Program-made: the position numbers and the translations under genes
In this document: positions 17,687-24,645 of the stretch, piece by piece
How the letters are laid out: every line of letters starts with the position of its first letter
Position numbering within the stretch: the first letter of the stretch is position 1
Assembly (NCBI GenBank): GCA_018653365.1
Contig: JABIAG010000001.1
Coordinates: 698,231-762,230 of the forward strand
Origin: Candidatus Woesearchaeota archaeon
GTDB lineage: Archaea > Nanobdellota > Nanobdellia > Woesearchaeales > JABIAG01
Direction: 5' to 3'
DNA length: 64,000 bases
Notes under the pieces: generated by a model
Seen by the model: only the letters and a program-made list of their open reading frames with translations
The model's database searches: none
Told to the model about the DNA's origin: nothing

Positions 17687-19723
17687 ATGTGCGGAATAAT
17701 TGGAATCTTTAATTCAAACAAGATTAGAACTCAACTCAAACAAGGAATGCAAGAGATGAAGCACCGCGGAAGAGATGGTTCAGGCACGTTTATTAAAGAA
17801 AATAATGGAATAGGACATGTACTACATGCAATAGTGAGCAAAGTAAAACAACCACTAAATTCCAAACTAGTTGCCAACTGCGAAATATACAACTGGCAAT
17901 CACATGGAATAAAAGCACGCAATGATGCAGAAATGATTCTAAGATTATTAGAAAAAGAAGGCATAACTGGAATTGAAAAACTCGATGGAGTGTTTGCTTT
18001 AGCATACTGGAATGAAAACAAAATCTACTTGGCTCGAGACATAATCGGAATAAAACCCATCTGGTACAGTCACTCAGACACATTTGCCTTCGCATCAGAA
18101 AAAAAAGTACTAGAAAAGTTAGGATTCGTAGATGTAATAGAATTAAATCCAAGAAAAATACTTGTTTATGACATTAAAACAAATGAAATAGACTTCATTG
18201 AAAGAGAATTCTTCAAACTAAAAGAAATCAAAAAACGAAAACAAGAAATCAAAAAAGAACTAAAGAAAAAACTACTTAGCGCACTAGAAAAACGAATTCC
18301 AACAAAAAAAGTGGGGGTGTTGTTTTCTGGCGGAATTGACTCAACAATAATTGCATATCTACTGAAAAAATGGAAAGTTGATTTCACTTGCTACACCGCT
18401 GTACTAGACGAAAAAGGAATGACAAAAGCAGAAGACCTAGACTGGGCAGAAAAAATAGCAAAAAAATACAAATTTAAATTAAAAACACGAAAAATTGGAA
18501 TAAAAGAAGTAGAAAAATACATCAAAAAAATTGTTCCACTAATAGAAGACTCAAACGTAGTAAAAGTGGGTGTTGCTTTACCATTTTATTTAGCATGTGA
18601 ACAAGCCAAAAAAGACGGTGTTAAAGTAATATTCTCTGGACTTGGAAGTGAAGAAATATTTGCCGGATATGAAAGACACGAAAAAAGTTCCAACATCAAT
18701 GAAGAATGCATTTATGGATTGAAACAAATGTACCAACGAGACTTATATCGAGACGATGTTGTAACAATGTACCACTCAATAGAACTACGCGTACCTTTTC
18801 TAGATAAAGAACTAGTAAATTATGCAACAAGCATTCCAGAAAAATACAAAATCGTTAAAGGAATAAAAAAACACATATTACGTGAAGTAGCACTAGAGTT
18901 AGGACTGGAAAAAGAATTTGCAATGCGAAAGAAAAAAGCAGCACAATACGGATCAAAATTTGATAAAGCAATAGGAAAACTAGCAAAAAAAGAAGGGAAA
19001 AAAAAATCAGAATACTTACGAAAATTCTACCCCTCACACAACCTACGAATTGGAGCATTATTCTCCTCAGGAAAAGACTCAACATATGCTGTTCATATAA
19101 TGCAAAAAATGAATTACGAAATCAGTTGCCTAATTACAATCAAATCTGAAAATAAAGACAGTTACATGTTCCACACCCCGAACATAGAGATGGTGAACTT
19201 ACAAGCTGAAGCAATGAACATTCCACTAGTAAGTGTTAACACAAAAGGAGAAAAAGAAAAAGAATTAGAAGATTTAGAGAATGCAATCAAAATAGCAAAA
19301 GGAAAATACAACCTAGACGGAATCGTAACCGGGGCATTGTTTTCAACATACCAAAGAAACAGGATTGAAAAAATATGCGACAAACTCGGACTAAAATGTT
19401 TTGCACCCCTCTGGCACAAAAACCAAGAAGAATACATGAAAGAACTAGTAAAATCCGGCTTTAAGATCCTGATTGTCAAAATTGCTGCCGACGGATTAAG
19501 CCAACAGTGGGTTGGAAAAGAATTAGATAACGAAGACATAAAAAAACTTGTTGCACTTAATAAAAAAAATAAAATAAACGTGGCATTTGAAGGCGGTGAA
19601 GCTGAAACATTAGTTATTGATGGGCCTTGCTTCAATAAACAAATTCTCATTAAGAAAAGCAAGATAATAACGGAATCTGACTGTATTAGTGAACTAGTAA
19701 TACAGAACGCAGAGCTAAACTAA
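17687..19723 (+). CDS. fusion of AsnB-type glutamine amidotransferase/synthetase and diphthine--ammonia ligase (Dph6)
   Basis: MCGI, HRG, RD-x-IGIKP, FSGGIDS, SGLGSEEIFAGY; then FSSGKDS, SYMFH, GALFSTYQ, FEGGEAET. Confidence 0.9.
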   Translation: MCGIIGIFNSNKIRTQLKQGMQEMKHRGRDGSGTFIKENNGIGHVLHAIVSKVKQPLNSKLVANCEIYNWQSHGIKARNDAEMILRLLEKEGITGIEKLDGVFALAYWNENKIYLARDIIGIKPIWYSHSDTFAFASEKKVLEKLGFVDVIELNPRKILVYDIKTNEIDFIEREFFKLKEIKKRKQEIKKELKKKLLSALEKRIPTKKVGVLFSGGIDSTIIAYLLKKWKVDFTCYTAVLDEKGMTKAEDLDWAEKIAKKYKFKLKTRKIGIKEVEKYIKKIVPLIEDSNVVKVGVALPFYLACEQAKKDGVKVIFSGLGSEEIFAGYERHEKSSNINEECIYGLKQMYQRDLYRDDVVTMYHSIELRVPFLDKELVNYATSIPEKYKIVKGIKKHILREVALELGLEKEFAMRKKKAAQYGSKFDKAIGKLAKKEGKKKSEYLRKFYPSHNLRIGALFSSGKDSTYAVHIMQKMNYEISCLITIKSENKDSYMFHTPNIEMVNLQAEAMNIPLVSVNTKGEKEKELEDLENAIKIAKGKYNLDGIVTGALFSTYQRNRIEKICDKLGLKCFAPLWHKNQEEYMKELVKSGFKILIVKIAADGLSQQWVGKELDNEDIKKLVALNKKNKINVAFEGGEAETLVIDGPCFNKQILIKKSKIITESDCISELVIQNAELN

Positions 19724-20827
19724 TTCATACCGCCCTTTACCAACACGATTGATCAAACCTTTCTTACAATAACGCCAAAGATAAACTGAAGGACTTTGAT
19801 AACCCAATGAGTTCAAACGCGTTTTGAACTGCTTTCTTGTAAATACGCCTTCCTTGTCAGCAATAATTTTCATAATCCGCAAACAGAAATACTGAGGATT
19901 GCGTGCTTTGATCTTCTTCATTGCGTTCAGAATAGTATTCTTCCTCTTTGATAAAAAGCCCACTTCTGAAATAAATCGATTTATGTTTGTAGCATAAATA
20001 ATTAAAACCCAGCGGGCAGTTATTTTTCCTGCTCTAAATCCAGTATGGTTATTACGAACCGCCTCGAAGTAAAGTTTTGACTCAATATTAAAATGCTTTT
20101 GCAACATTTTCTGCTCATCCAAAAGTAGCACAGGAGGTTTGGATTCAATTGCAACACAGACTTCAGGATTAAACTGCTTAAGTTTGCCCTTAAAAACCCG
20201 TTTTGCCAAAGGTAATAAATCTACTTTTACGCAATCATCCACACTTGTATAACGTGTCAATTTTATGTAACGCTTATGTGATGCAATATCCAGTATTGGA
20301 CTGCCCTCCGCTTCAAATGCTACACGCAAATAACTTTTAGCTAAACTCTTATTGTTTTTTATTAAAGCTGGAACAGAAACAGGGAGCGGAATCATATACC
20401 GCACCTGTGCTGGAGCTCTTGAACGCTTAAAACCACTATTGTAATCATACATGATCTTATTCGCAACATCAACAGAAAGTAAACCCTTAATGCATTCAAA
20501 AAACATCTTGTGAAAAAAATCTTCGGGCAAGTTTAAACTGAATTCTGTATTAAATGATCCTTCTGAAAGCATTAATGCATATAGTTTAGCATACAATTCC
20601 GAATTAAAAACTAAAGGAAATTTTAGTTTAAGATGTTTGGACGATCTTATGTGATGTTTAATCCCCATTACCAAGTTTGTTATTTCGCCATAATCAGCAT
20701 AACGCTTGCACTTTCGTACAGTAACTAACGTTCTATCCTTACTTAACTCAGGAAGGGGGTTTTTCAATTTTAACTGTAAAGAATCGGGCAAATCCCACCA
20801 ATTAACTATTAATTCTTCTTCATTCAT
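19715..20827 (-). CDS. free-standing LAGLIDADG homing endonuclease-like protein with C-terminal wHTH
   Basis: LYALMLSEGS and YLRVAFEAEGS motifs; FISEVGFLSKRK. Confidence 0.7.
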   Translation of the reverse strand: MNEEELIVNWWDLPDSLQLKLKNPLPELSKDRTLVTVRKCKRYADYGEITNLVMGIKHHIRSSKHLKLKFPLVFNSELYAKLYALMLSEGSFNTEFSLNLPEDFFHKMFFECIKGLLSVDVANKIMYDYNSGFKRSRAPAQVRYMIPLPVSVPALIKNNKSLAKSYLRVAFEAEGSPILDIASHKRYIKLTRYTSVDDCVKVDLLPLAKRVFKGKLKQFNPEVCVAIESKPPVLLLDEQKMLQKHFNIESKLYFEAVRNNHTGFRAGKITARWVLIIYATNINRFISEVGFLSKRKNTILNAMKKIKARNPQYFCLRIMKIIADKEGVFTRKQFKTRLNSLGYQSPSVYLWRYCKKGLINRVGKGRYELV

Positions 20828-20835
20828 TTTTCGAT

Positions 20836-20877
20836 TCCTCCAAAGTTTTTCAACTACTGAGAACTTTGGAATGGCAG
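20836..20877 (-). promoter_or_regulatory. 5' leader hairpin sequestering the GGAGG RBS of the LAGLIDADG gene
   Basis: Minus strand CTGCCAT-TCCAAAGTT-N14-AACTTTGGA-GGA...ATG; near-identical copy at 53500-53540. Confidence 0.7.
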
Positions 20878-21131
20878 TATAAAAAGAGACTCAACTAGCG
20901 AAACTGCTCTTAAACTTTTAACTTAAGTGACCACAGAGTGGGAAGAGTTTAAGTTGGGAGTTTTGCGCGAGGATCTTTTTCCAAAAGAATCAAAATTTAT
21001 TTATAAACCTGGCGTCAGGACCTGTCCAGTGACCAATGGTTTAAGTATGAAAAATTTCCGGTTTGGCCAGTGGTTTTTTCCACAATTTAAGCAAAAAATT
21101 AAAATAGTTAAGAAAAAAACAGAGATGGAAA

Positions 21132-21329
21132 ATGAAAATACTGGAAAACTTAGGATTGAAAAAGCAGAATCTAAACTCAAAAGAGTATGCCGCTGCTGTT
21201 AAAAGAAAAGACATGCAAATAAAGCAGTTAGAAAGAGATAAAGAAGTGCTAAGAACCACATTATTAAAAAAAGAAAGAGAAATTCTAGAAATGAAAGACA
21301 TCCTCAAAAAAGCTCAAAAATCACTATAA
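21132..21329 (+). CDS. small coiled-coil protein
   Basis: 65 aa, K/E-rich heptads. Confidence 0.55.
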   Translation: MKILENLGLKKQNLNSKEYAAAVKRKDMQIKQLERDKEVLRTTLLKKEREILEMKDILKKAQKSL

Positions 21330-21396
21330 GCACAGTATCTACTAGCAAGGGACAAATACCAATAATGCTTATAAATAGTTCTTTGTTCTTAACAAT

Positions 21397-23889
21397 ATGC
21401 CTAGAAGAAAAACCAATACAGTTGAAGAAATCATAGAATTTGTACTAGAACATGAAGGCCCAGATCTGGATGGATGTGCCCACCCAACTAAGAGAAGAGT
21501 TATGTTTGCTGAGTTAGATGAGGCAATAACCCACATTCACGAGATGGCACTTCTGCCGAACTTAAGAACGTATCATTTTAATAGCGTTATGTCGATTTGG
21601 AAAACGGATAAAGAATCAGGCAAACCTTTAGCAAGAGAACTTACAGGATTGTTAATGGATAGAATGCTACAAAGACACCGCACACTACTAGACGTAATAA
21701 AAAATATCAAACAGGAAGATTTCAAAAACGAACAATTCAAATTTGAAACCAAAGACGGAACAATACAATATAACTTAAGGGCAATGCTGGGAACTGCGTA
21801 TGCATCTTCACTAAACGCAGCAGTAATGGACTGGATAACACACAATCCTAATGCAGAAATAAGAACAGAATACGCAGGAATAAAACCATGGCACTTCGGA
21901 AGAGTTCCAAATGGTACGTGGGAAGGGGAAAAAGGAAAACAAAACGCAAGAGAAGCAACAGGACAACTAATAGCAAAACTACAACAAAGACACGGAACAT
22001 TACTAGAGGTAATACAACATATTACCTCAGACCACTTCAAAAATGAGCAACTTGAATTCACCAACAAAGATGGAACACTACAATACAATTTAGCATCAAT
22101 GGCACACCACGTTTATCAAGGTTCACCAAGTGCAGCAGTAATAGACTGGATAACACACAATCCTAATGCAGAAATAAGAACAGAATACGCAGGAATAAAA
22201 CCATGGCACTTCGGAATGGCCCCCCTAGGAACATGGAAAGGAAAACAAGGAAAACAAAACGCAAGAGAAGCAACAGAATTGTTAATGGCTAGAATGCTAC
22301 AAAGACACAGCACACTACTAGATGTAATAAAAAACATAAGCCAAGAAGACTTTCACAAACCTCTCGAATTCACAAACAAAGACGGAACACTACAACATAA
22401 CTTAAGGGCAATGCTCCGAATGGCTTATCTGAGTTCACCAAGTGCAGCAGTAATAGACTGGATAACACACAATCCTAATGCAGAACTAAAAACAGAATAC
22501 GCAGGAATAAAACCATGGCACTTCGGAATGGCCCCCCTAGGAACATGGAAAGGAAAACAAGGAAAACAAAACGCAAGACAACTAACCGGACAACTAATAG
22601 CAAAACTACAACAAAGACACGGAACACTAATAGAAGTAATAAAAAACATAAGCCAAGAAGACTTTCGCAAACCGCTCGAATTCACAAACAAAGACGGAAC
22701 ACTAAGGCACAATGCCCAAGCAATGTTTGAAGTCGCCTATAACAGCTCACCAAGTGCAGCAGTAATAGACTGGATAACACACAATCCTAATGCAGAAATA
22801 AGAACAGAATACGCAGGAATAAAACCATGGCACTTTAAAAAATCCCCCCTAAGAACATGGAAAGGAAAACAAGGAAAACAAAACGCAAGACAACTAACCG
22901 GACAACTAATACAAAAACTACACAAAATATATGGAACATTAACAGATATCATAACACACGTAACGGCGGAGGACTTTCACAAAGAACGACTTGCATTCCA
23001 AAATAGAGATGGAGTAATAACCCACACCATTGAATCAGCTTTCTGTGAAGTTTACCGAAGTTCACCAAGTGCAGCAATACTGGACTGGATAAAACAGCAA
23101 CCAGAACGAGTAAGAGCCCAATATTCTTTTGTAAAACCGATACATTTTGTTGGAACAGCCCGAACTAGGGCAAGAAGACTGGCAGGAAAACTAAGCCCAT
23201 ATGATTTAAGATCGGTAAAAAAACAAAATACATATGATACTTCAGTATTTGGATTTAAACAATATCATTCTAGTGATAAAGATGTAATGCGCTGGATCAT
23301 GGCTGAAGAAGCAATAAAAGTGTTGGGAGATAGAGACGTTAGATATCTGGGCTTGGAAACCGAACAATTTAGAGGCATATCTGCAGTTTATGACCAACTA
23401 AATCTTAATAGTTTTAGATCAACTGTTATTGAAAGAGATCCCAGAGTTTATAATGCCATGCTAGCGGTGAAACAGAGAGTCCGAAGCAAACCAGGCAAAG
23501 CGGTAAGAGGAACCCAGATCATTAACGGCCAATTAGCGGAAGAGGTAAGCAAAATACGAGGGCGAAGATACAATTATGTCAACTATGATTTCCAAGGATT
23601 CCTAAGCAAGGGTAATGTGCAGGCAATAGAAACCTTATTTCGAAAGGAATTACTTACAAAAAAAGCCATAATTTATGTTACTTTACAAGAAACTCAACTC
23701 GCCAAAAGCCGAGCTAAAAAAGCTGGATTTGAAGACCAAGTAAGTGCATTAAATCAATTAATGCAAGACCAGAGTTCAACACACACCTGTAAACAAATGT
23801 TCACCCTAGATTATCAAGGTGGAACTACAGATAGACATAAGACCCCCATGATTGTTGTAGGTTATGAAGTTACAAGACTTGCAGCATAA
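21397..23889 (+). CDS. tandem-repeat protein (5 x ~104 aa) with C-terminal class I SAM-dependent methyltransferase-like domain
   Basis: Repeat core DWITHNPNAEIRTEYAGIKPWHF...TWKGKQGKQNAR; C-terminal YLGLET, VIERD, VNYDFQG, IIYVTL, PMIVVGYEV in Rossmann strand order. Confidence 0.8.
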   Translation: MPRRKTNTVEEIIEFVLEHEGPDLDGCAHPTKRRVMFAELDEAITHIHEMALLPNLRTYHFNSVMSIWKTDKESGKPLARELTGLLMDRMLQRHRTLLDVIKNIKQEDFKNEQFKFETKDGTIQYNLRAMLGTAYASSLNAAVMDWITHNPNAEIRTEYAGIKPWHFGRVPNGTWEGEKGKQNAREATGQLIAKLQQRHGTLLEVIQHITSDHFKNEQLEFTNKDGTLQYNLASMAHHVYQGSPSAAVIDWITHNPNAEIRTEYAGIKPWHFGMAPLGTWKGKQGKQNAREATELLMARMLQRHSTLLDVIKNISQEDFHKPLEFTNKDGTLQHNLRAMLRMAYLSSPSAAVIDWITHNPNAELKTEYAGIKPWHFGMAPLGTWKGKQGKQNARQLTGQLIAKLQQRHGTLIEVIKNISQEDFRKPLEFTNKDGTLRHNAQAMFEVAYNSSPSAAVIDWITHNPNAEIRTEYAGIKPWHFKKSPLRTWKGKQGKQNARQLTGQLIQKLHKIYGTLTDIITHVTAEDFHKERLAFQNRDGVITHTIESAFCEVYRSSPSAAILDWIKQQPERVRAQYSFVKPIHFVGTARTRARRLAGKLSPYDLRSVKKQNTYDTSVFGFKQYHSSDKDVMRWIMAEEAIKVLGDRDVRYLGLETEQFRGISAVYDQLNLNSFRSTVIERDPRVYNAMLAVKQRVRSKPGKAVRGTQIINGQLAEEVSKIRGRRYNYVNYDFQGFLSKGNVQAIETLFRKELLTKKAIIYVTLQETQLAKSRAKKAGFEDQVSALNQLMQDQSSTHTCKQMFTLDYQGGTTDRHKTPMIVVGYEVTRLAA
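21550..23148 (+). repeat. coding tandem repeat, period 312-315 bp
   Basis: TGGATAACACACAATCCTAATGCAGAA at 21832, 22147, 22459, 22771; degenerate fifth copy at 23086. Confidence 0.95.
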
Positions 23890-23906
23890 GATTTAATAGT
23901 CGAGAA

Positions 23907-24644
23907 ATGCCAAAAAGCTTTATAAGTGGACTGAAAGTTCTAAGAGTTATGACAGACGATTACCGACAGGAACTCCTTGAAAGAGGACTGGACTTAACAG
24001 GATTTGGAGCAGTGATAGAAGTAACAAATGGTTTACGTGATAAAAGAGGAACATTTAATCATACAAGAGATCATAAATTAGAACAAGCTGTTTTGTGTCG
24101 TGACTACCTAAGACAAACCCTTCAACCCGAAACAAGACTTGATGTGGGAATTGCCTACTGTACAGATAAAGAAAGATCCCAACGACAACTAACCCCTGAC
24201 TTTACAATAAAAGCAATTGAATTTGATCTACCCACATTACGATCTGCGCTTGAAAGCATAACTCTAAACAGAACTTCACGTCAAGAGGTAAGGGTATTGG
24301 CAAGAGCAATGCTATTAAATGCTGGTCGAAACTTTCCATTACAAAAATTCTTTGAACCAAATGAAGGCCAAACAAAACAGGCAGCAAGAAAAATCGGCAT
24401 GCCCTTTCGCCAATACATGATAAACCGTACCAAACTTAGAGGAGTTGCAGCAGAAAGATACTTGTATAATGCCCTAATGCAAAGATTAGATTTTTGTTTG
24501 CCTGTTCATGGATTCAAATTTAAAGAGGGGAAAGTTCCAAGAGAGGCAGACCTGGTAATTGCATGTCACCAGCAAAACTTTTACGATACATTAAGAAATC
24601 TAAATCAACAAGGATGCTTTGGCGTAAAAGTTAATGCAGAATAA
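23907..24644 (+). CDS. hypothetical protein with C-terminal PD-(D/E)XK-like segment
   Basis: RGVAAERYL...GFKF...READLVI resembles the restriction-endonuclease-fold core, but the ExK is not evident. Confidence 0.45.
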   Translation: MPKSFISGLKVLRVMTDDYRQELLERGLDLTGFGAVIEVTNGLRDKRGTFNHTRDHKLEQAVLCRDYLRQTLQPETRLDVGIAYCTDKERSQRQLTPDFTIKAIEFDLPTLRSALESITLNRTSRQEVRVLARAMLLNAGRNFPLQKFFEPNEGQTKQAARKIGMPFRQYMINRTKLRGVAAERYLYNALMQRLDFCLPVHGFKFKEGKVPREADLVIACHQQNFYDTLRNLNQQGCFGVKVNAE

Positions 24645-24645
24645 A

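Follow-up and report, generated by a model that had tools for sequence, protein, structure and literature searches.

A predicted class I methyltransferase carrying an array of five variable DUF4046-like repeats in a Woesearchaeota archaeon

Results

Gene organization

The stretch of DNA analysed here (the window) comprises 64,000 nucleotides of a contig from a Candidatus Woesearchaeota archaeon. On its forward strand, to which all features below belong, an ORF at positions 21397..23889 is translated into a protein of 830 aa made up of a cap, five repeat units and a methyltransferase domain. The N-terminal cap (aa 1-61; 21397..21579), predicted by the structural model to form two helices, is followed by unit 1 (aa 62-167; 21580..21897), unit 2 (aa 168-272; 21898..22212), unit 3 (aa 273-376; 22213..22524), which is absent from a 726-aa variant of the protein, unit 4 (aa 377-480; 22525..22836) and unit 5 (aa 481-584; 22837..23148), the most divergent of the five. 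A short helical linker (aa 585-609; 23149..23223), delimited by the family alignment and the model helices and containing a conserved R-x-RR / G motif, leads to a domain (aa 610-830; 23224..23886) that was assigned to the class I SAM methyltransferases from its model, Foldseek, VIA-align and conservation. The gene is present as a single copy in its own genome of 1.09 Mb. As the earlier note on this DNA had pointed out, a second ORF of 245 aa (23907..24644) starts 17 nt past its stop codon.

The cap resembles a variant half-unit with TYHF at its end, and the motif GPD..G.AHP..KR within it is conserved in the family. This cap is present in 59 of the 159 retrieved relatives of the 830-aa protein, and its residue P22 is nearly invariant in an alignment of 37 proteins. 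The whole protein gave no match in a sequence search against the PDB. Its summed matches in Pfam, NCBIfam, PADLOC and PHROGs, for example to AMP-dom_DIP2-like and DinB_2, were dismissed as spurious repeat artefacts, because no single matched stretch underlies them.

Sequence and evolution of the repeat units

Tandem Repeats Finder detected a repeat with a period of 312 nt and 4.0 copies in the DNA (80% matches, score 1477), and the protein contains five units in tandem, each 104-106 aa long. The earlier note had described these units as being about 104 aa long and had quoted three short patches (i to iii) that vary between them; both the units and all three patches are present. The first helix of the unit holds a fourth variable stretch, which reads either LIAKLQQ or LMxRMLQ. 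The scaffold between the patches had been called nearly identical even in DNA, which is true of the second half of the unit (SPSAAVIDWITHNPNAE...PWHF) and does not extend to the rest of it. When codon pairs encoding identical residues in units 1-4 were compared, none of the 87 pairs in this second half differed, against 42-50% of the pairs in the patches and 20-30% of those elsewhere. Exact DNA tracts of up to 89 nt are common to different units. With the last units of orthologues, unit 5 shares a similarity of 50%, much the same as the 52% to the closest unit of its own protein. This pattern of sequence identity indicates that the repeat units evolve in concert, that the divergence in the three variable patches is old, and that unequal recombination and gene conversion drive the evolution of the array, with half-units identical in DNA and the three patches kept different.

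Variation of the repeat number among homologues, which the earlier note had proposed to look for, was found: the relatives carry from 2 to 8 units. Variants of 726, 622 and 517 aa occur in other assemblies, as does another 830-aa form whose unit 5 has GMAPLG as patch ii, and all of these are made up purely by recombination of one set of units. They could be genuine or could result from assembly collapse.

Across the family, the patches are hypervariable at the same positions in 24 members. In helix 4 the variable positions, which are mostly N, S, G, D, R, H or Q, alternate with conserved hydrophobic residues at i, i+3, i+4, i+7 and i+8, and this conservation pattern, on which the prediction wholly rests, places the variable patches on exposed faces. 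The patches had been supposed to form one basic, solvent-facing surface; exposure is what the conservation pattern predicts, while the charge of the array is not consistently basic, its net value being neutral or acidic in 12 of 24 full-length relatives. The patch corresponding to a putative 'recognition helix' is skewed to D/E and D/H. All 140 aligned residue sets of patch i are distinct, and ten or more positions vary; since every unit is unique, the patch residues do not form a small code. The pN/pS ratios (Nei-Gojobori) were 0.3-0.7 overall and 0.3-0.6 in the patches, and diversifying selection in the patches is not demonstrated by them, because they do not exceed 1 and pS is saturated.

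Predicted fold of the repeat unit and its relationship to DUF4046

The cap and the first two modules were modelled as one well-defined body (pLDDT 95.6, pTM 0.88), in which each module of about 104 aa is predicted to consist of three helices, a beta hairpin and three further helices. Against the PDB, this model gave no Foldseek match at E <= 0.001 and a best VIA-align Z of only 5.4, and neither search matched it to a known protein-binding repeat fold. The modelled repeat unit is thus without a clear fold match in the PDB.

The earlier note had been reminded of DUF4046-type repeats, and a remote relationship is supported by profile comparison, structure and a language-model score. Comparison of the long units with short units of 80 aa by hhalign gave a probability of 99.5% (E 1e-22), and the short-unit proteins exceed the Pfam DUF4046 cut-off (22.8 bits) as summed scores. 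In the ESM Atlas, the repeat model matched a DUF4046 cluster (99% DUF4046) with TM scores of 0.52/0.54 over 198 residues, the next row having 0.29, and the DUF4046 structural matches together ranged from 0.52 to 0.55. A language-model search gave the same link with a score of 0.86 and 188 shared features. DUF4046 and the units described here have in common the motif order PW-x-F...W-x-G-x2-G...A-x-E-A...F...G-M-L...Y-x2-S-P...P-W-x-F, but the units described here are about 25 aa longer, owing to the insertion of a beta hairpin and to one additional helix. The Pfam DUF4046 model itself matched neither the 830-aa protein at E <= 1 nor its gene in a six-frame search of the genome. We concluded that the repeat unit is remotely related to Pfam DUF4046 (PF13255) and is enlarged in comparison with it. 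DUF4046 is an uncharacterised repeat found mostly in Bacillota, whereas the units of the present family belong to archaeal proteins and are joined to an enzyme; a literature search on DUF4046 found no paper.

Three weak, independent signals hint that helices 1-3 of the unit resemble the N-terminal HTH of TetR: VIA-align of the repeat model against the PDB gave Z values of 4-5.4, with TetR-family regulators in most of the 50 rows listed; TetR_N was matched by 2 of 51 short units at E of about 1e-3; and the sole PDB profile match, at E 0.21, was a TetR regulator. In other proteins, the repeat module is joined to a segment like sigma-70 region 2. A literature search on such sigma-repeat proteins of Woesearchaeota found no paper, and a broader query on DPANN dark matter returned general papers only.

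The methyltransferase domain

The earlier note had assigned the C-terminal domain to the class I SAM-dependent methyltransferases from five short motifs. All of these are present, namely YLGLETE (650-656), VIERD (677-681), VNYDFQG (728-734), IIYVTLQ (758-764) and PMIVVGYEV (817-825), and in the AlphaFold model they fall on strands 1, 2, 4, 5 and 7, respectively. The model (pLDDT 94.9) has the class I fold, with a seven-stranded, Rossmann-like sheet and a C-terminal antiparallel hairpin. At least 500 structures matched it in Foldseek at E <= 0.001, and the best 50 were all methyltransferases, the top E values being 1e-8 to 1e-6. In VIA-align, E. coli RsmD (2fpo) came first with Z 16.9, M. tuberculosis RsmD (6m1c, 3p9n) had Z 16.0-16.1, and Trm1 (3axt) had Z 14.9, with TYW2, Trm5, Trm14 and RlmO close behind; the RsmD superpositions have an rmsd of 2.5-2.6 A over about 170 residues. 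PrmA is also among the fold matches, and unrelated small-molecule methyltransferases score within 1-2 Z units of the best ones.

The family profile matched only RsmD-like proteins in the PDB (best 2fhp, 2esr and 2ift), and in the profile alignment NLDYxG falls onto D-P-P-Y of 2fhp. Among 58 sequences, K628, G652, D731, G734 and Y806 are invariant and E654 and E679 nearly so. The glycine loop after strand 1 reads Y-L-G-L-E-(G/T), the acidic E679 stands at the end of strand 2, and the motif after strand 4 is N-Y-D-F-Q-G here and D-[FYW]-x-G across the family. The predicted fold together with these conserved cofactor and catalytic motifs bears out the assignment: in the C-terminal 220 aa, the model shows the fold of class I SAM methyltransferases, and the cofactor motifs are intact.

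RsmD (YhhF)/Cons_hypoth95 and Trm1, which are N2-guanine RNA enzymes, are the best structural matches and share with the present domain the class I fold, the acidic position that follows strand 2 and a catalytic loop of the Asp-aromatic-Gly type after strand 4. They differ from it in having D-P-P-[FY] or D-P-F-G where D-[FY]-x-G stands here, in an identity of just 12-15% between their structures and this domain, and in lacking its 584-aa repeat array and extra helical N-terminal extension. Cons_hypoth95 (PF03602) did not match the 830-aa protein and matched 2 of 58 relatives weakly (E 0.0086). PF20553 (Methyltransf_35), a 'putative O-methyltransferase', likewise did not match the protein itself and matched 13 of 58 family members weakly (best E 4.6e-7); PF20553 is itself uncharacterised, and a literature search on it found no paper.

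Distribution of the family and genomic context

The family comprises about 215 cluster representatives, and every match with an organism name is from Woesearchaeota. It occurs in 19 of 301 genomes of the phylum, and searches of genomes from the same genus and the same family did not find it. The 830-aa gene occupies a variable genome slot, and we infer that it is an accessory gene. The order of cap, array and enzyme is kept across deep divergence, down to 25% identity.

On sister branches of the methyltransferase domain, canonical HTH domains replace the array; the one HTH-bearing protein whose source was checked is also from Woesearchaeota. One copy of the domain that stands alone is encoded two genes away from a MORC-type GHKL ATPase, and the genes following two sister-branch methyltransferases are unlike each other. 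The methyltransferase domain is common to HTH fusions of Woesearchaeota and the repeat module to fusions with the sigma-70 region-2-like segment; the 830-aa protein unites the two modules, which are separate in those fusions. Two orthologues overlap a DUF488 gene that is followed by a spore-photoproduct-lyase gene. No neighbour gene was conserved across ten family loci.

The 245-aa gene had been proposed to encode a nuclease working as the RM-like partner of the methyltransferase. The letters of the quoted core (G-x2-AE ... EADLVI) are present, while the nuclease fold received no support from any tool: the protein had no Pfam, PADLOC, PHROG or PDB match, single-sequence and four-sequence profiles searched for a nuclease against Pfam and the PDB found nothing, and the ESM Atlas leads, Mrr_cat_2 and PDDEXK_4, were below reliable scores. 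Its family is a small one of Woesearchaeota-type genomes (6 of 301), with invariant residues E38, K57, E183, D215 and E245. Both families occur together in a single one of the 301 genomes, the present one, and no relative of the 245-aa gene was seen beside any methyltransferase homologue in the ten loci. In another genome, a relative of the 245-aa gene adjoins ZPR1 in the absence of such a methyltransferase, and BLASTP found no similarity between the 245-aa protein and the gene after a sister-branch methyltransferase. On co-occurrence, the partnership is contradicted. The 245-aa gene, linked to the ZPR1 flank, appears to be an unrelated neighbour that is not part of the system, and the 830-aa methyltransferase is not an RM system.

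Discussion

With a probability of roughly one half, we regard the 830-aa protein as an orphan methyltransferase aimed at its target by its own repeat array. The enzyme would be a stand-alone, SAM-dependent, cytoplasmic methyltransferase, and the exposed variable patches would be the surface that selects the substrate, so that the array would deliver the enzyme to a particular target. The family is an undescribed one, and its array probably picks the target. The methyltransferase probably acts on nucleic acid, DNA being somewhat likelier than RNA, and the array would be expected to work as a chain of independent recognition domains, comparable to poly-HTH or poly-Myb proteins, with no code of one repeat to one base. 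The lean towards nucleic acid is suggested by analogy with the HTH sister branches, the MORC-type GHKL neighbour and the sigma-like fusions, and we infer it also from the DUF488/spore-photoproduct-lyase context and the TetR likeness.

Some observations point the other way. The closest solved structures are RNA enzymes, and the D/E and D/H bias of the patch is unusual for DNA contact; with regard to nucleic acid in general, half of the arrays (12 of 24) are net neutral or acidic.

An RNA or ribonucleoprotein target, in which the domain would methylate a base of rRNA, tRNA or another RNA while the array docks on folded RNA or the ribosome, is an unlikely reading. The three best structural matches are RsmD, the 16S rRNA m2G966 enzyme, and Trm1, TYW2, Trm5, Trm14 and RlmO come next; the profile matches in the PDB are exclusively RsmD-like. 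Against this, unrelated small-molecule methyltransferases stand within 1-2 Z units of the best matches, the patchy occurrence and variable slot are unlike those of a housekeeping RNA-modification enzyme, and the sister branches carry HTH domains of the DNA type. We consider it doubtful that the array binds proteins, with the domain methylating a Gln, Lys or Arg side chain or the array being an interaction platform. Each unit has a unique patch set without a small code, which recalls binding surfaces of the antibody or LRR type. Many arrays are acidic, and PrmA is among the fold matches; motifs of the D/NPPY type are known in protein glutamine methyltransferases too. Nevertheless, no known protein-binding repeat fold was matched, and where the repeat or the methyltransferase domain is fused to other partners, these are DNA-related. 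It is improbable that the patches are unconstrained loops in an array serving as a spacer, solubility or oligomerisation module, with a mosaic pattern set only by the end points of gene-conversion tracts. A patch pN/pS below 1 and variable positions of polar or small character, at which any residue is tolerated, would agree with this, but hypervariability recurs at the same positions in 24 independent proteins, conversion wipes out variation right beside them, and the cap-array-enzyme architecture is conserved down to 25% identity.

The reading of the earlier note, a TALE-like residue code per repeat that steers a modification enzyme and a downstream PD-(D/E)XK nuclease in an RM-like system, is very improbable. 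TALE-like readers have repeats of 33-36 aa, in each of which one or two residues set the specificity according to a small code. The present array resembles TALE, PUF and PPR proteins in its tandem arrangement, conserved scaffold and variable residues, and TALEs also in concerted evolution and varying unit number; the C-terminal methyltransferase is real, and the neighbour's invariant acidic and lysine residues (E38, K57, E183, D215, E245) could be counted in favour. The units of about 104 aa are, however, three times larger than those repeats, vary in three patches at 10 or more positions with no recurrent residue code, have no fold similarity to them, and form arrays of which half are neutral or acidic. 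This size and variability, the co-occurrence with the neighbour in one of 301 genomes, the ten loci without a conserved neighbour and the lack of any nuclease family, structure or profile match for the neighbour all speak against it.

A broader extension of the orphan-methyltransferase reading is speculative: the DUF4046-like module may represent a new class of interchangeable domains that recognise nucleic acid. Its arrays in Woesearchaeota would be shuffled by recombination within the gene, each module retaining its own specificity patches, and would send effectors such as the methyltransferase or the sigma-like segment to composite sites.

Conclusions

If the array were merely a scaffold, the protein would be an ordinary lineage-specific methyltransferase and an unusual case of concerted repeat evolution. 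If the array does select the target, the protein would be a natural methyltransferase whose specificity resides in a recombining chain of modules, and a possible new protein scaffold in targeting. For the uncharacterised DUF4046 repeat, a functional setting would then be available for the first time. The protein would also connect two orphan architectures of Woesearchaeota, the HTH-methyltransferase and the sigma-repeat proteins, and bear on how DNA or RNA is marked in genome-reduced symbiotic archaea. Were the modules exchangeable as well, they would make up a targeting system of natural origin for epigenetic marks, with parts that can be re-assorted.

Layout of the repeat-methyltransferase gene

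The ORF at 21397-23889 (+) of the window encodes a protein of 830 aa. Within the gene, Tandem Repeats Finder detected a repeat with a 312-nt period (4.0 copies, 80% matches, score 1477). At the protein level, the unit borders were set by using the recurring PWHF motif as anchor, which gave an N-terminal segment of 61 aa (the cap) with TYHF at its end, five repeat units (aa 62-167, 168-272, 273-376, 377-480 and 481-584) and a C-terminal part of 246 aa. The three patches that the earlier note had described as varying between units (patches i, ii and iii) were all found in the translation, as were the C-terminal motifs quoted there. Antisense (-) frames of 71-171 aa are open in each unit (21573-22952) and in orthologues too; the simplest explanation is that they arise incidentally from the conserved A-rich sense sequence, and not that they are a set of genes.

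The C-terminal domain

No Pfam, NCBIfam or PDB sequence match was obtained for the whole 830-aa protein. The model of the C-terminal domain (aa 610-830) had a pLDDT of 94.9 and a pTM of 0.89, and the matches listed by Foldseek against PDB were class I SAM methyltransferases only, with E-values down to 2.7e-8. A search independent of Foldseek placed the RsmD-like enzyme 3p9n at the top (Z 16.0, rmsd 2.6 Å, 169 residues), followed closely by 2ift and Trm1. When the top 1000 Foldseek chains were re-ranked, E. coli RsmD (2fpo) was the best (Z 16.9), followed by two M. tuberculosis RsmD entries (Z 16.0-16.1); since unrelated methyltransferases trailed by just 1-2 Z units, we regard the RsmD resemblance of the model as a lead and not as an assignment. 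The family profile also matched best to RsmD-like structures in PDB (2fhp, 2esr and 2ift; E 0.02-0.08), and in the alignment to 2fhp the N-L-D-Y-x-G of the family falls on the D-P-P-Y motif. In an alignment of 58 C-terminal domains from relatives, no variation was seen at K628, at G652 in the loop that follows strand 1, at D731 and G734 in the loop that follows strand 4, or at Y806, and hardly any at E679, where strand 2 ends. On these structure matches and invariant residues, we concluded that the fold, the cofactor motifs and the catalytic motifs are conserved, in support of the class I SAM methyltransferase fold proposed before, and we infer that the protein has methyltransferase activity.

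The repeat unit is a remote relative of DUF4046

The cap and units 1-2 were modelled with an input alignment of 37 relatives (pLDDT 95.6, pTM 0.88), and the high pTM suggests that they are packed as one defined body. Each modelled unit consists, in order, of a long helix, two short helices, a beta hairpin, the patch-i helix, the conserved SPSAAVIDWI helix, a short helix and the PWHF turn. Foldseek gave no match of this model in PDB; the best VIA-align score was Z 5.4, under the tool's own meaningful level, and TetR-family regulators made up most of the 50 matches listed.

Iterated profile searches among the retrieved relatives tied the 104-aa units to the approximately 80-aa units of other proteins, and hhalign linked the alignments of the two forms with 99.5% probability (E 1e-22); a hairpin insertion and one more helix set the long units apart from the short ones. 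Three short-unit proteins passed the Pfam DUF4046 cut-off as summed scores. The array model matched a DUF4046 cluster in the ESM Atlas with TM 0.52/0.54 over 198 residues (next row 0.29), and DUF4046 clusters were also returned by language-model search (score 0.86). The Pfam DUF4046 model itself did not match the 830-aa protein directly. From the hhalign link, the short-unit scores and the two cluster matches we concluded that the unit is a remote, enlarged relative of DUF4046, a kinship at which the earlier note had hinted. A literature search for DUF4046 found no paper.

Variable patches and array evolution

In 24 proteins with at least three units, the most variable positions within a protein coincide: two residues after M-L, two after a conserved Y, the residues before a conserved F and the loop after PWHF. 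Helix 4 has conserved hydrophobics at i, i+3, i+4, i+7 and i+8; its variable positions lie on the opposite face and are mainly N, S, G, D, R, H and Q, and thus look exposed. TALEs employ a small residue code, and a similar code had been proposed here; in contrast, no patch-i residue set recurs among the 140 that were aligned, therefore no small TALE-like code exists. Of 24 full-length relatives, only 12 have an array with positive net charge, and patch iii has an acidic bias at two positions. These features argue against a reader of the TALE, PUF or PPR type, and leave room for protein binding by the array.

The units evolve in concert, since those of one protein (mean identity 0.59-0.73) resemble each other more than units of different proteins do (0.42-0.70). 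The only exception is the last unit, with 50% identity to the last units of orthologues and 52% to the closest unit of its own protein. Divergence age varies sharply along the unit. At columns with identical residues in units 1-4, the SPSAAV...NAE segment had 0 differing codon pairs out of 87 and the tail 3 out of 66, against 42-50% in the patches and 20-30% elsewhere; the longest exact shared DNA tract, 89 nt, lies between the non-adjacent units 2 and 4. This showed that the units are mosaics: recombination holds half of each unit identical, and the patches retain old, unit-specific sequence. Because pN/pS in the patches was 0.3-0.6 with pS saturated, the test gave no sign of positive selection there. 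In other assemblies the protein is 726, 622 or 517 aa long, or has 830 aa with GMAPLG at patch ii of unit 5, the sequence also present there in units 3 and 4. Every one of these forms is an exact recombinant of the units described here, and they could be either real variants or assembly collapse.

Distribution and genomic context

An exhaustive search yielded 215 cluster representatives at E <= 0.001, and all matches bearing an organism name are Candidatus Woesearchaeota. Relatives with the same cap-array-methyltransferase architecture have 2-8 units, so the expected variation in repeat number does occur. The methyltransferase-domain profile matched 19 of 301 genomes of the phylum, six of them strongly; neither the same-genus nor the same-family genome was matched.

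In its own genome (1.09 Mb, 95% complete) the gene is single copy, with an AsnB-Dph6 fusion gene on one side and ZPR1 on the other. This interval (19724-24645) contains wholly different genes in related genomes (loci L033 and L034): a 553-aa unknown and a 177-aa ORF in the same-genus genome, and ORFs of 162 and 479 aa in the same-family genome. The gene is therefore accessory cargo in a variable slot. The slot's only gene in common with the same-family genome is a 65-aa coiled-coil ORF just upstream of the repeat gene (21132-21329, +; 36% identity, E 5e-6). The flanking ORF at 17687-19723 (+), in which an AsnB-type amidotransferase and a Dph6-like domain are fused, is kept full length in same-genus, same-family and one same-order genome. 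Its last 9 nt are overlapped by the 3' end of a gene at 19715-20827 (-) for a basic 370-aa protein (pI 9.9; weak LAGLIDADG_3, AbiEi-type HTH and NucT matches). The slot has no such gene in either the same-genus or the same-family genome, and a free-standing, homing-endonuclease-like element may have inserted here.

The gene for a 245-aa protein (23907-24644, +) starts 17 nt past the stop codon of the repeat-methyltransferase gene and had been proposed as its nuclease partner in a restriction-modification-like system. A word-based search of 5.8 billion proteins matched this protein to nothing besides itself, and a six-frame search found weak relatives in 5 of 301 genomes (best E 6e-9). None of the five has the methyltransferase, which speaks against the pairing; in one of them the relative and ZPR1 again converge, and no such methyltransferase lies near them. 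E38, K57, E183, D215 and E245 are kept in the four-member family alignment, and no nuclease family or structure was matched.

Gene neighbours vary among the loci of homologues. In two related genomes (L001, 9114-10633; L004, 1957-3479) three genes form a chain of overlaps: the repeat-methyltransferase gene ends within the start of a DUF488-N3a gene, and the latter shares bases with a radical SAM gene of the spore-photoproduct-lyase type. This cluster looks like an operon of DNA-related genes. In another lineage (L002, 4708-7872; L003) the repeat-methyltransferase gene is preceded on the same strand, at a distance of 130 nt, by a SAM synthetase gene, and the remaining loci have unrelated genes nearby. 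Sister-branch methyltransferases (L020, 133-2745; L021, 5001-10031) occur in tight operons, one consisting of the stand-alone domain, a 202-aa unknown and a MORC-type GHKL ATPase, the other of an HTH fusion and three unknowns of 216, 257 and 500 aa.

Probable target of the methyltransferase

In more distant relatives of the methyltransferase domain, canonical HTH domains take exactly the place of the array, and some of them pass Pfam cut-offs; the one relative checked for source is likewise from Woesearchaeota. Together with the MORC-type ATPase two genes downstream of a stand-alone copy of the domain, the occurrence of the short repeat form in proteins with a sigma-70 region-2-like segment, and three weak signals of likeness between unit helices 1-3 and TetR-type HTH, this leads us to favour a nucleic acid as substrate, DNA somewhat over RNA. 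RNA is a serious rival, because the solved structures nearest to the methyltransferase domain are RNA enzymes.

The repeat-methyltransferase gene belongs to an undescribed family. As the most likely mechanism, to which we give a probability of about one half, its product would be an orphan methyltransferase that a recombining array of large recognition modules brings to its target.
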